DNA of 64,000 bases. Source: Thermoplasmatales archaeon. GTDB taxonomy: Archaea > Thermoplasmatota > Thermoplasmata > Thermoplasmatales > GCA-001856825. How positions within the stretch are numbered: the first letter of the stretch is position 1; each line of letters begins with the position of its first letter. Positions 30,942-35,245 of this stretch are shown piece by piece. The notes under the pieces are model-generated. The model had not been told where the DNA came from. It saw only the letters and a program-made list of their open reading frames with translations, and ran no database searches. The stretch is from positions 2,122 to 66,121 of the forward strand of contig JAVYSX010000002.1 of the NCBI GenBank assembly GCA_038728965.1, written 5' to 3'. Both the position numbers and the translations under genes were made by a program.

Positions 30942-32600
30942 TCAAGACCGGTTACTTTTTCTTTCTATAAATTCAGGTTCAGATGAATCGCCGACAGGCG
31001 GAATTAGTAGCACATCGGAGCCTTCAGGAATCTTCCCCAGTAAAGAGGGAAATGTCGCAAATACTAGGTCTCCGTAGGTCGCAAGCTTCTCCTCCATTCT
31101 CTTCGGCGATTCAATATCTGAATATTCACATTCTACCGGCCTGACCAACCCGTCTTTCCTTATCATGAGATCTGGTCTCTTCCCTTTATATTCTATTCCC
31201 TCCGTCACGTCGTATCTGCGATTTTTGAAGAAAATATAAGCTCTAGTTATTAGATACCTGTGGAAAAAGGATTCATTGCCCTTCCTCCCCCTCAGTCCCA
31301 TCTTTTTAAAGTAGTCCTCACTCATCACGACCTTTCCGTTGATTACGAATGCCAGGCCCTTGGAAACTAGCTGTGAGACGTATGCAGACTCCATCTTATC
31401 TATTTGAATTTCCAAACAATCTTGAGGATCGTCGTCAAAATCGTAAAAATCCTCCGTTACATGAAAATCTCTCGCCGGGTTCATAGCTTTTAGGGTCCCT
31501 GAAAAAAAAGCCTCGTCACTTGGAACGTAACAGACAAACGAATGGAAGTCTCGCGGCTTAGTTATGCTCTCCTTAATATGTAAAATTTTCCTATCTTCTT
31601 CTGATGTCTGGAACAGGAAGAAATTGTGGACATTTGTTCTTATGGAGCTTGTCAAGTTGGGAGGAAGTGAGCTTAATGACTGAGTAGCCATAGCTGACCA
31701 GAGGGAAAATTTCCTTCCCTCGGATACGATCCTTACTAGTATGGAAGGGGATAGGGTCTGCAGCTCGTCCATTACAACAACCACGTTCCTCATCCTTTTC
31801 AGGATTACGTTGATCCATATCTTGTACAGGAGCATTATTGAAAAAGATCTGACGAGAGATTGTGCAGAATGTTCGCCAGAAAGGTCAAAATAAACAGTAC
31901 CTGAGAGTTTTGAGATATCAAAATAATCCCTCCTGGATGAGAAAAGGTTTTTCGAGGTGACCTCTGACAGCAGCGGAAGAATTTTGTTAACCGTGGAAGA
32001 AATGAAATCATAGCCCATGTTGAAGATCGAGTACAACTGTTTTTTCTCCTCAGGCTCCAGCGAACTCATGAAATCCCTCCTCTTGTAAAAGTCTAGAAGG
32101 ATGTCTGCGATGTCCTGCAGCGACGGTTCTATCCTGTATTTAAAGAGGAGCCTGGGTACGATCGTGAAGATGAGTTCGACCCTAGGACCCCATGTACCGA
32201 TAGAAAAGGCATCTTCTGTTGAAAATATATCCTTTAAATTGCGAATGACAAGATCCTCGATTATTAACCTTTCAGTCTCGTTCTGATATGGCAGAACAGC
32301 CATCATATTAAACCTAAGGTACCCTGTTTTCCTCCCAATAAATGGGGAAATCGTGACTATCTTTGCTTTTTCCCCTGAAAATTTCCAGAGTTCACCGTGA
32401 GGATCTAGAACAATGACTGTCATACCTAGGTTCTCGTAAGCGTTGATGAGTGATGCAAGAAGCCTTGATTTGCCGGTGCCTGTCTTACCGAGAACGAGCG
32501 AATGTGCGCTCAGAAATTCATCCGGGATAGCTATCCTCTTACCTGTGAGAGGCATGAGGATACCGCTTTCATAGGGCCAGTAATCGATCATCTGAACCAC
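30942..32600 (-). CDS. HerA/FtsK-superfamily P-loop ATPase fused to a C-terminal CoiA-like PD-(D/E)xK nuclease-type domain
   Basis: Walker A LGKTGTGKS (aa 37-45) is followed by VIVLDPHGE, then Walker B VVVVMDELQ (aa 273-281) and SEGRKFS. The C-terminus reads NESFFHRYL...VTEGIEYKGKRPDLMIRKDGLVRPVECEYSDI (aa 441-496). There is no N-terminal HAS barrel. Confidence 0.75.
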   Translation of the reverse strand: MVQMIDYWPYESGILMPLTGKRIAIPDEFLSAHSLVLGKTGTGKSRLLASLINAYENLGMTVIVLDPHGELWKFSGEKAKIVTISPFIGRKTGYLRFNMMAVLPYQNETERLIIEDLVIRNLKDIFSTEDAFSIGTWGPRVELIFTIVPRLLFKYRIEPSLQDIADILLDFYKRRDFMSSLEPEEKKQLYSIFNMGYDFISSTVNKILPLLSEVTSKNLFSSRRDYFDISKLSGTVYFDLSGEHSAQSLVRSFSIMLLYKIWINVILKRMRNVVVVMDELQTLSPSILVRIVSEGRKFSLWSAMATQSLSSLPPNLTSSIRTNVHNFFLFQTSEEDRKILHIKESITKPRDFHSFVCYVPSDEAFFSGTLKAMNPARDFHVTEDFYDFDDDPQDCLEIQIDKMESAYVSQLVSKGLAFVINGKVVMSEDYFKKMGLRGRKGNESFFHRYLITRAYIFFKNRRYDVTEGIEYKGKRPDLMIRKDGLVRPVECEYSDIESPKRMEEKLATYGDLVFATFPSLLGKIPEGSDVLLIPPVGDSSEPEFIERKSNRS

Positions 32601-33126
32601 CGTTTATAAGTGTTGATATTTCAGGATCAGTCAGTATCATAGGGTGTCCTTTTGCAAATGTAATCGATTGTCTGCCACTTGACGATGTATACCTCCTTAA
32701 CAGGATTGGGGTAAATATCTTGACCAGATACATAGGTCTGTTGGTTTTGAATCCCAGAGTTTTTTTCTTCCATGGGTTTAAAGTCCTGTAGCTCTCAGTC
32801 TTGACGAATATTCTTTCCCCGGTATTGAGACCTAGGACCGTCTCCAAGATGAACGGAAAGGCAACGAATAGGGCATACCTAGGTTTGTTTGAGAGGAATA
32901 CATTTTCACTCCATCTGAACTCGTAATAAATCCGCTCAACCCTGTTACCCAATATTTCTGAAAGCAACCTTGCAACATCATTGCCAATCTCCCCGTCAAA
33001 GAATGTTATGGACACCGTGTTACTCTTGGCAATCGACATCTCTATTTCTCGACCGACGAGAAGTAGGTTCAGTACTTCCCTGAGGTTGGTTGTATCAGTT
33101 ATGAACGTGCGCCAGCAAAGAGACAT
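32569..33126 (-). CDS. hypothetical protein, middle gene of the ATPase operon
   Basis: 185 aa counted from the ATG at 33126 (the track uses a TTG at 33144). That ATG overlaps the upstream ORF stop (TGATG), and the 3' end overlaps the ATPase start by 23-32 nt. No motif recognised. Confidence 0.55.
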   Translation of the reverse strand: MSLCWRTFITDTTNLREVLNLLLVGREIEMSIAKSNTVSITFFDGEIGNDVARLLSEILGNRVERIYYEFRWSENVFLSNKPRYALFVAFPFILETVLGLNTGERIFVKTESYRTLNPWKKKTLGFKTNRPMYLVKIFTPILLRRYTSSSGRQSITFAKGHPMILTDPEISTLINGGSDDRLLAL

Positions 33127-33263
33127 CAGGATCCTTCCTCGCAAAACAGATTCAAATATTTCTCCATTAGGCTCTCACTACCCCCACACTCAGCCCAAAA
33201 AAAGGTTCCGAATTTTCGAAACGGGCTAAAATAATAAAATTCTTTCAGAATTTTCTTTTCCAT
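33126..33263 (-). CDS. small ORF (45 aa), first gene of the ATPase operon (tentative)
   Basis: The ATG at 33263 is preceded by GGAGGG 6 nt upstream, giving MEKKILKEFYYFSPFRKFGTFFWAECGGSESLMEKYLNLFCEEGS. Its stop overlaps the next start. The track lists a longer TTG-initiated 74-aa version. Confidence 0.35.
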   Translation of the reverse strand: MEKKILKEFYYFSPFRKFGTFFWAECGGSESLMEKYLNLFCEEGS

Positions 33264-34348: not shown

Positions 34349-35245
34349 CTAAAAAAGGAATAAATTTTTTCCTTCACTCAAAATTTCAGAGATCAATTTT
34401 CTAGCCTCATGAAGGTCTATAGGTGGTGAGAATGATATTGTCACAATGTTGTTGTCAATAGATGCTTGAAACATGGCTGGTCCGTAGGGTTGTTTAAACG
34501 CAAGGAGACCTCCGATATCGTAGAATGCATCGTAGAAGTTCCCATCCCTCCTCAGATTATAATAATTGCTTTTACCGGGAAAATCTTTCCTTGAAAAATC
34601 TATCCAGATTGTCCTACGCGTAAAATCTTCGCTAAATATTGAAATTCTCTGAACAATATTACCTCCCTCCGTAAGTGTTCCTACCGAGTCTGGTTTGAAT
34701 CTATCCCACCCCGCAGGCTCGGTAAGCGGAGTCCAGCTAAGGGACGCAATCCTTCGTTCTTCAAACCAGTCCGGTTTTCCCCCGCGCGCAAAGAACGACC
34801 TGTTGCAAAAACGGAGGTTTTTAAACCCATCCATTTTCATAACAGGTACCAAAGTTTTGCTCACCTCCTCCACTAATTTTCTGCTTTCCCCTTCGATCTC
34901 CACCTCCGTACCCAGGACGAAGGAGGAAGAGGCGTGCATATCTTTATAATCCTTTCCCACGAAGTAAACATACCCGCGCCCCGCTGCAGTTTCAACCCTG
35001 GTATACGTAGAGACAAAGGAGTTCATTAAATTCTTAGGGAACCCCTGATAGAACCAATCGAGGAAGAACTCCTTAACCCTTGCTTTTCCAGAATCAGTAG
35101 CTAGCTCAAAGCGAATAGTACTCCATTTCGTTCCCTCTGGTCTTAGCGTTGCATTGAAAATTTCACAACACGAAGGTTTGAATATCAGGAACGGCAGGGA
35201 TACCTGAACCGACTCAAGTCCCTCTACTTCCAGATACCTCTCCAT
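34349..35245 (-). CDS. hypothetical protein
   Basis: 298 aa soluble ORF, 3 nt upstream of the CoA-binding gene (probable operon). No motif recognised. Confidence 0.5.
   Translation of the reverse strand: MERYLEVEGLESVQVSLPFLIFKPSCCEIFNATLRPEGTKWSTIRFELATDSGKARVKEFFLDWFYQGFPKNLMNSFVSTYTRVETAAGRGYVYFVGKDYKDMHASSSFVLGTEVEIEGESRKLVEEVSKTLVPVMKMDGFKNLRFCNRSFFARGGKPDWFEERRIASLSWTPLTEPAGWDRFKPDSVGTLTEGGNIVQRISIFSEDFTRRTIWIDFSRKDFPGKSNYYNLRRDGNFYDAFYDIGGLLAFKQPYGPAMFQASIDNNIVTISFSPPIDLHEARKLISEILSEGKNLFLF

Follow-up and report, generated by a model that had tools for sequence, protein, structure and literature searches.

In the archaeal HerA-NurA complex, which resects DNA ends, a ring ATPase of the HerA clade works together with a nuclease on DNA; this nuclease, NurA, is a separate protein with an RNase-H-like fold. 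In FtsK gamma and in Streptomyces TraB, the motor is followed by a winged helix. In the literature searched, we found no description of a TrwB/HerA-type ring translocase covalently fused to a PD-(D/E)xK nuclease, and the 2012 census of the PD-(D/E)xK superfamily contains no HerA, DUF87 or FtsK entry. Here, we analyze a gene that appears to encode such a fusion. It is located at positions 30942..32600, on the minus strand, of a 64,000-nucleotide stretch of DNA from a Thermoplasmatales archaeon (contig JAVYSX010000002.1), which we call the window. A first-pass annotation of this DNA had assigned the C-terminal domain of the encoded ATPase to the CoiA-type PD-(D/E)xK nucleases. We estimate the probability at about 0.7 that the product of the gene is a soluble ring ATPase of the TrwB/HerA type linked to a predicted catalytically competent PD-(D/E)xK endonuclease of an unannotated family.

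The PD-(D/E)xK superfamily includes accepted members that lack the lysine, among them BamHI and BglII, and the E-x-E variant, in which glutamate replaces lysine, is active in BamHI. The active site of CoiA was described as 'PD-EXQ', resembling that of BglII (itself named as a PD-ExQ-like variant), with a conserved arginine where a relocated lysine would sit (PMC1189080). In Streptococcus pneumoniae CoiA, D95 and E105, which are located on β2 and β3, are needed for structure-specific endonuclease activity and for D-loop resolution (bioRxiv 2024.02.06.579203). CoiA is reported to be confined to Bacillota (PMC3424549; bioRxiv 2024.02.06.579203).

The C-terminal domain and its motor

The open reading frame (ORF) comprises 552 codons from the GTG at 32600, and the coordinates given above include the stop codon. 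Translation probably starts instead at the ATG at 32591 (M4), since the 549-residue orthologues open with MDYWPYE; the protein would then have 549 residues. The closest proteins come from Thermoplasmatales metagenome-assembled genomes and are labelled only 'DUF87 domain-containing' or 'type IV secretion system DNA-binding domain-containing'. Residues 441 to 496 read GNESFFHRYLITRAYIFFKNRRYDVTEGIEYKGKRPDLMIRKDGLVRPVECEYSDI, exactly as quoted in the first-pass annotation (from 31280, where residue 441 begins, to 31113, the last position of residue 496; these and all following feature coordinates are window positions on the minus strand). Conservation was assessed in 24 full-length orthologues (45–90% identity) and in 45 sequences that add relatives of 620–685 residues at 20–30% identity, including Thermoplasma volcanium TVG0369160 and proteins from Cuniculiplasma, E-plasma and Oxyplasma. 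A wider set consisted of 17 loci, one of them from a Methanomethylicia archaeon (L007).

To model the C-terminal part, AlphaFold2 (AF2) was run on residues 396–552 with the 45-sequence alignment; a second model covered the full-length protein. The C-terminal model had a mean predicted local distance difference test score (pLDDT) of 86.5, with values above 90 across the core of a domain spanning residues 441–535 (30996..31280). This domain is predicted to contain the α-β-β-β-α-β core of the restriction-endonuclease fold, with α1 at residues 445–460, β1 at 464–466, β2 at 478–482, β3 at 485–491, α2 at 499–509, β4 at 513–516 and β5 at 529–532. The full-length model (pLDDT 84) recovered the same elements. 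D477 was placed immediately before β2, E490 in β3 and E492 right after β3, with S494-D495 on a short turn and R501 and K505 on α2. When the domain was compared with the PDB using Foldseek, the top matches were nearly all PD-(D/E)xK proteins: 3dnx (E = 8.9e-5), Bax1, a CdiA-CT toxin, Hjc and YaeQ, with further matches to Can2, the R2 endonuclease domain, DdmD and SfsA. Among the viral models in BFVD, the leading matches were again nearly all PD-(D/E)xK nucleases; this search returned MmcB-like proteins (root-mean-square deviation 3.0–3.5 Å), C2H2-domain proteins and Holliday junction resolvases (Hjc); a phage 'competence protein' ranked fifth. The models thus support a restriction-endonuclease-like fold in the C-terminal ~95 residues, with acidic residues at the canonical catalytic positions. 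Both features on which the earlier assignment depended, the predicted core and the conservation of the acidic residues D477, E490 and E492, were found.

Seventeen positions of the domain are invariant in the 24 orthologues: G441, E443, S444, H447, R448, Y449, E467, P476, D477, L478, E490, C491, E492, S494, D495, R501 and K505. Across the 45 sequences, some of them at only ~20% identity, seven of these remain invariant (H447, D477, E490, E492, S494, D495 and K505); conservation of P476 and R501 is at least 90% in this set. H447 (31260..31262) is at the N-terminus of α1, and the 'PD' pair P476-D477 (31170..31175) directly precedes β2. The segment E490-C-E492-Y-S494-D495 (31116..31133), at the end of β3, carries the E-x-E variant of (D/E)xK. 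Its third motif position is therefore Glu, not the canonical Lys; R501 and K505 (31086..31100), both on α2, are candidates for a relocated basic residue and may substitute for the missing lysine. The histidine, the PD aspartate, E-x-E and the final aspartate stay invariant in the 17 wider loci, two of which have a substitution at S494; in the Methanomethylicia locus, the positions of R501 and K505 are occupied by K and H. Given this conservation, the motif is, as judged from the alignments, a conserved signature and not a chance resemblance. The order ES..H..E..PD..E-x-E proposed earlier is real for H, PD and E-x-E, but ES (E443/S444) and E467 are kept only in the close 549-residue subfamily and vary in the wider family. 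Of the proposed catalytic tetrad E467/D477/E490/E492, the last three residues are accordingly the ones conserved family-wide.

The N-terminal part of the protein is a soluble TrwB/HerA-type P-loop ATPase (residues ~20–385; 31446..32543), as identified by Pfam and Foldseek. Nearly every position of its Walker A motif, GKTGTGKS (residues 38–45; 32466..32489), is invariant in the 45 sequences, as are D278 and E279 of the Walker B motif, VVVMDELQ (residues 274–281; 31758..31781). An all-α domain is inserted at residues ~105–217. Pfam matched DUF87 (HerA) at 2.7e-13 and TrwB_AAD_bind (PF10412) at 27.8 bits, against a cut-off of 20.5. In Foldseek searches with the full-length model, TrwB was the best match when the score was normalized to the target (TMt 0.55–0.61); HerA, HerA-Sir2, DUF4297-HerA, HerA-NurA, DndH-C, Cag-beta and VirB4 were matched as well. 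No transmembrane anchor was found at the N-terminus, the highest 19-residue hydropathy window (1.61, residue 249) being a helix inside the core. A HAS barrel was not matched by Pfam anywhere in the protein, and the P-loop begins already at residue 38. Identity with HerA, CedD, CedB or TraD at the equivalog level was rejected: the scores of 16–35 bits are far below the NCBIfam cut-offs (for HerA, NF040819, 33 bits against 970). The covalent connection of a nuclease-fold domain to a HerA/TrwB-type ATPase, as originally proposed, is upheld by both Pfam and Foldseek.

Between motor and nuclease, AF2 predicted a helix, a β-hairpin and a second helix (residues ~402–433; 31302..31397) flanked by low-confidence linkers. 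A winged helix-turn-helix (wHTH) had been suggested at residues ~400–435. The helix/hairpin/helix arrangement is compatible with this, but the pLDDT is low (42–83) and the segment looks at best like a recognition-helix-plus-wing remnant. It is missing from the 620–685-residue relatives. G187, a homologue with ATPase, wHTH and nuclease that is more distant and comes from a different Thermoplasmatota family, has a fuller wHTH-like segment at the same position (weak Fe_dep_repress match, E = 0.013).

Comparison with CoiA and other described systems

The relation to CoiA was examined using the Pfam model CoiA_nuc (PF06054). Even with E ≤ 10 allowed, it matched neither the whole protein nor the C-terminal fragment. 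The source genome, searched in six frames, also gave nothing, and control genomes matched as they should. Two matches, both sub-threshold, were obtained in 251 Thermoplasmatota genomes. PF06054 was likewise not found in five bacterial genomes reached via homologue loci, nor in 81 genomes from the phylum to which one of these five belongs. The best CoiA_nuc score of any relative was that of G187, with 17.1 bits over model positions 14–92 against a gathering cut-off of 20.3. Weak Pfam matches among 17 family members were to MTES_1575 (three), CoiA_nuc (one, E = 0.0041), Hjc (one) and NERD (one), all of them PD-(D/E)xK families. Remote representatives retrieved with the domain profile gave weak matches to Hjc, MTES_1575, NERD, UPF0102/YraN, CoiA_nuc (sub-threshold, in three representatives), AHJR-like, SfsA, MmcB-like and PDDEXK_9; their motif reads H...(P)D...E-x-(E/Q/L/I).

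The archaeal domain and CoiA share the PD-(D/E)xK fold with an atypical third residue (PD-ExQ in CoiA, PD-ExE here) and a conserved basic residue after β3, and the order of the motif, H...PD...E-x-(E/Q)-x-S, resembles that of the CoiA site. Both have an aspartate at β2 and a glutamate on β3, D477 being located just before β2 and E490 in β3 in our models, and the sub-threshold profile similarity, though weak, recurs in relatives of the ATPase-nuclease. The differences are more extensive. The third residue is an invariant E492 in 45 sequences here and Q in CoiA, and the spacing from D to E is 13 residues as opposed to 10. CoiA has an N-terminal C2H2-type zinc finger and a long C-terminal region, neither of which is present in the archaeal protein, whereas the archaeal nuclease follows a 385-residue ATPase and has no competence context. 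Membership in the CoiA family is unsupported because there is no PF06054 match, because other families are matched equally weakly, and because the third residue, the architecture and the context differ. We conclude from these sequence comparisons that 'CoiA-type' applies as a motif-level analogy only: the site would function like those of CoiA, BglII and BamHI, which do without the lysine, but the domain would form its own family, absent from Pfam and NCBIfam. Accordingly, we rate it as a new PD-(D/E)xK family within a motor–nuclease fusion, set apart from CoiA by Pfam scores, third residue and architecture. The ~95 residues of a conserved archaeal protein that now carries only the DUF87 and type IV secretion system (T4SS) DNA-binding labels could thereby be assigned as a probable endonuclease with candidate catalytic residues.

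The closest parallels to the active-site pattern are D...E-x-E of BamHI and D...E-x-Q of BglII, which have an acidic or polar residue in the place of the lysine. These are dimeric type II restriction enzymes without a motor, and the likeness seen is one of active-site pattern. The nearest neighbors of the domain (MmcB-like, Hjc, the Bax1 nuclease domain, MTES_1575, NERD and AHJR-like) were matched below threshold or at the fold level only; none of these families has the H...PD...ExExSD...R...K signature or an ATPase fusion. As to the motor, the similarity to HerA-NurA lies in the combination of a HerA-clade ring ATPase with a nuclease and in the structural match to HerA, but the nuclease is fused here and has a PD-(D/E)xK fold, the HAS barrel is missing, and the HerA score is very low (see above). 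The coupling proteins TrwB, VirD4 and TraD share the nucleotide-binding domain with its all-α insert, in keeping with the TrwB_AAD_bind score above cut-off and the best target-normalized structural match. Unlike them, the archaeal protein has no N-terminal membrane anchor and no T4SS or relaxase neighbors, and a nuclease domain is added. Finally, the order of motor, (w)HTH and C-terminal module recalls FtsK gamma and TraB, particularly in G187 with its fuller wHTH; in the window protein, the winged helix is degenerate and is followed by the nuclease.

Distribution, proposed role and competing explanations

A search with the nuclease-domain profile (E ≤ 1e-3) yielded 65 proteins among 1.84 billion representatives, ~48 of them being the same fusion or fragments of it. 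The domain was present in 35 of 61 Thermoplasmatales genomes, once per genome. Except in a few fragments at contig ends or in pseudogenes, it lay within a frame of 540–675 residues; within the order it was met only fused to this ATPase, fragments aside. Sampling across the phylum gave 20 positive genomes out of 301. All 18 genomes of the archaeon's own genus carry the gene in single copy. Outside Thermoplasmatota, the Methanomethylicia archaeon encodes a 652-residue homologue with the same fusion (L007, 1104-3074; motif H...PD...EAEYGD). It is preceded by an overlapping orphan ORF of ~216 residues with no detectable similarity to the protein encoded upstream of the window gene.

The occurrence of HerA-like ATPases and of NurA was compared with that of the fusion. 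HerA-like ATPases are nearly universal in Thermoplasmatales and were found in 15 of 15 genomes of the archaeon's own family. NurA (PF09376) was found in none of these 15; the source genome, which is 61% complete, showed neither NurA nor a HerA-like ATPase. In the groups g5 and f2, NurA occurs where the fusion does not. Strict complementarity was rejected, NurA and the fusion both being present in g6, g8, g9 and g147. What anti-correlation there is remains partial, and phylogeny confounds it.

We take the protein most likely to be an ATP-driven translocase and endonuclease acting on DNA, belonging to a new family specific to this lineage. If TrwB, HerA and FtsK are a guide, its ATPase would form a hexameric ring that pumps DNA through its pore. 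A flexible linker and the degenerate winged-helix remnant would connect each motor subunit to its nuclease domain, and the six tethered domains would cut DNA under translocation or loading. Cleavage would depend on a divalent metal (Mg2+), with D477 and E490 binding the metal and E492 acting as in BamHI, where Glu stands for the canonical Lys; H447 on α1 and R501 and K505 on the following helix are likely helpers. The analysis itself shows the identity and conservation of the two domains, with an intact motor and a complete acidic site, their constant fusion, vertical inheritance among housekeeping genes and a conserved small partner; the hexamer, the threading of DNA, Mg2+-dependent cleavage and the cellular role are what we infer. 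For that role, we consider chromosomal DNA end-processing, repair or recombination the leading candidate, at somewhat less than even odds; a function of another kind is less probable, and restriction-like defence slightly less so again. Vertical inheritance and the housekeeping context are the reasons for weakly favoring chromosomal DNA processing or repair over defence. If the protein is a repair factor, it would bear on DNA-end processing in wall-less acidophilic archaea without NurA. A more elaborate scheme, a 'motor plus blade' in which the hexamer, its six tethered nucleases and the 185-residue product of the adjacent gene (see below) carry out DNA end resection or clearance in those Thermoplasmatales lineages where NurA was not found, is something of a long shot. 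If true, archaea would have here a new way of processing double-strand breaks or of disposing of chromosomal or foreign DNA, and the domain would be the founder of a new PD-(D/E)xK family. T. volcanium TVG0369160 offers a cultured representative, which makes the prediction directly testable.

Several observations weigh against the translocase-endonuclease. A PDB sequence search with the domain profile returned only noise (E > 0.5) and thus no relative of solved structure. With the canonical lysine missing, activity hinges on a BamHI-type arrangement. The neighborhood (queD/queC, HU, CoA-binding protein) offers no functional clue. In two of the 18 genomes of the genus, the gene is disrupted by in-frame stops or frameshifts (G311:C5:22118-23747 and G316:C6:30668-32307); unless these are assembly errors, some lineages at least can thus do without the gene. 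A simple 'NurA replacement' by the fusion is not established, because NurA co-occurs with the fusion in other genera.

The fold could also belong to a catalytically dead domain that serves the ATPase as a module for DNA binding, substrate recognition or oligomerization. Many PD-(D/E)xK domains are non-catalytic, glutamate replaces the canonical lysine here, and remote stand-alone relatives have L, I or Q at that position. However, the seven residues that stay invariant to ~20% identity (H447, D477, E490, E492, S494, D495 and K505) are typical of a metal site and not of a scaffold, and E-x-E is active in BamHI; we therefore regard a dead domain as improbable. Still harder to sustain is the view that the domain truly belongs to PF06054 as a divergent member, which would make the protein a motor-coupled structure-specific endonuclease resolving recombination D-loops. 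The shared PD...E-x-(Q/E) logic with its basic residue after β3, the sub-threshold CoiA_nuc matches (G187, one of 17 family members and three remote representatives) and the phage 'competence protein' among the BFVD matches all point that way. Yet neither the window protein at E ≤ 10 nor the six frames of the genome matched the model, every relative stayed under 20.3 bits, and MTES_1575 (three of 17), Hjc, NERD and AHJR-like were matched just as weakly. The invariant E in place of Q, the lack of an N-terminal zinc finger and of a competence context, and the reported restriction of CoiA to Bacillota make this explanation very improbable.

A role in restriction-like defence deserves more weight, unlikely as we take it to be. 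The protein would then act as an effector in the manner of HerA-Sir2, HerA-DUF4297 or DndFGH, with a motor that scans DNA and a nuclease that destroys invaders. The best PADLOC matches were defence ATPases (mad8, 1.4e-12, several HerA models and DndH), the structure search returned HerA-Sir2, DUF4297-HerA and DndH-C, and the gene is patchy in the order (35/61), where pseudogenes occur. These PADLOC, PHROG and structural matches, however, cover the generic ATPase core only; the nuclease domain and the partner protein had no PADLOC match. Vertical inheritance, conserved synteny among housekeeping genes, the lack of adjacent defence genes and the single copy in 18/18 genomes of the genus also argue against a defence effector. 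The ATP-driven translocase-endonuclease remains our preferred reading.

Gene neighborhood

The ATPase-nuclease gene is preceded by an orphan gene encoding 185 residues (32569..33126), which shares 23 nucleotides at its 3′ end with the start of the ATPase gene; the other neighbors are queD/queC and genes for HU and a CoA-binding protein. Homologues of this partner are located directly upstream of, and overlap, the ATPase gene in the related loci L001–L004 (phmmer, 2e-52 to 1e-8). In the 549-residue subfamily, the synteny is kept, with an orphan of 185–217 residues overlapping the ATPase start and queD/queC downstream. The partner protein had no match in Pfam, NCBIfam, PADLOC or PHROG, and a word search of 5.8 billion proteins returned close relatives only and no distant homologues. 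A hidden Markov model of the partners from these short-type loci did not match the genes upstream of the loci that encode the 620–685-residue (long-type) relatives, which are found in different housekeeping contexts. No adjacent defence genes (methylase, CRISPR or other) or mobile-element genes were seen at the loci examined.

Two further candidates were discarded. A Dpd-like link to queD/queC was rejected, as the adjacency occurs only in the close 549-residue subfamily and not at the long-type loci. A 45-residue ORF (33126-33263, minus strand) had been considered for the opening position of the operon; no counterpart of it is conserved upstream of the partner gene in L001–L004, where tblastn gave only noise, and it is probably not a gene.

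Three other sets of ORFs were noted. A 298-residue orphan ORF in the window (34349-35245, minus strand) has homologues at L008 4981-5904 and L031 5035-5907 (30–31% identity; E = 3e-35 and 2e-25), where, in E-plasma and Cuniculiplasma, they are located directly upstream of a long-type ATPase-nuclease gene. The ORF was found in 20 of the 61 genomes of the order, each of which also has the fusion; it was not found in any of the 26 that lack the fusion. This co-occurrence may reflect a functional link or merely inherited synteny, the related genomes not being independent. In one long-type subgroup (L006 7877-8818, L005 3308-4249 and L014 7827-8759), the ATPase-nuclease gene overlaps at its end with an ORF of 310–313 residues. 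In L006, this ORF weakly matches calcineurin-like phosphoesterases (Metallophos, E = 0.005); the product could be an Mre11/SbcD-like partner. Elsewhere in the source genome, contig C7 (43000-48568, L081) carries a second, unrelated FtsK/HerA-type cluster of overlapping genes. They encode a hydrophobic (membrane-like) protein of 193 residues, a VirB4/HerA-like ATPase of 534 residues and a TraD-like ATPase of 680 residues. By eye, the last of these has no H...PD...ExE motif, and a paralogue of ~679 residues is found in most genomes of the genus. The composition of this cluster suggests a Ced/Ted- or conjugation-like DNA transfer system.

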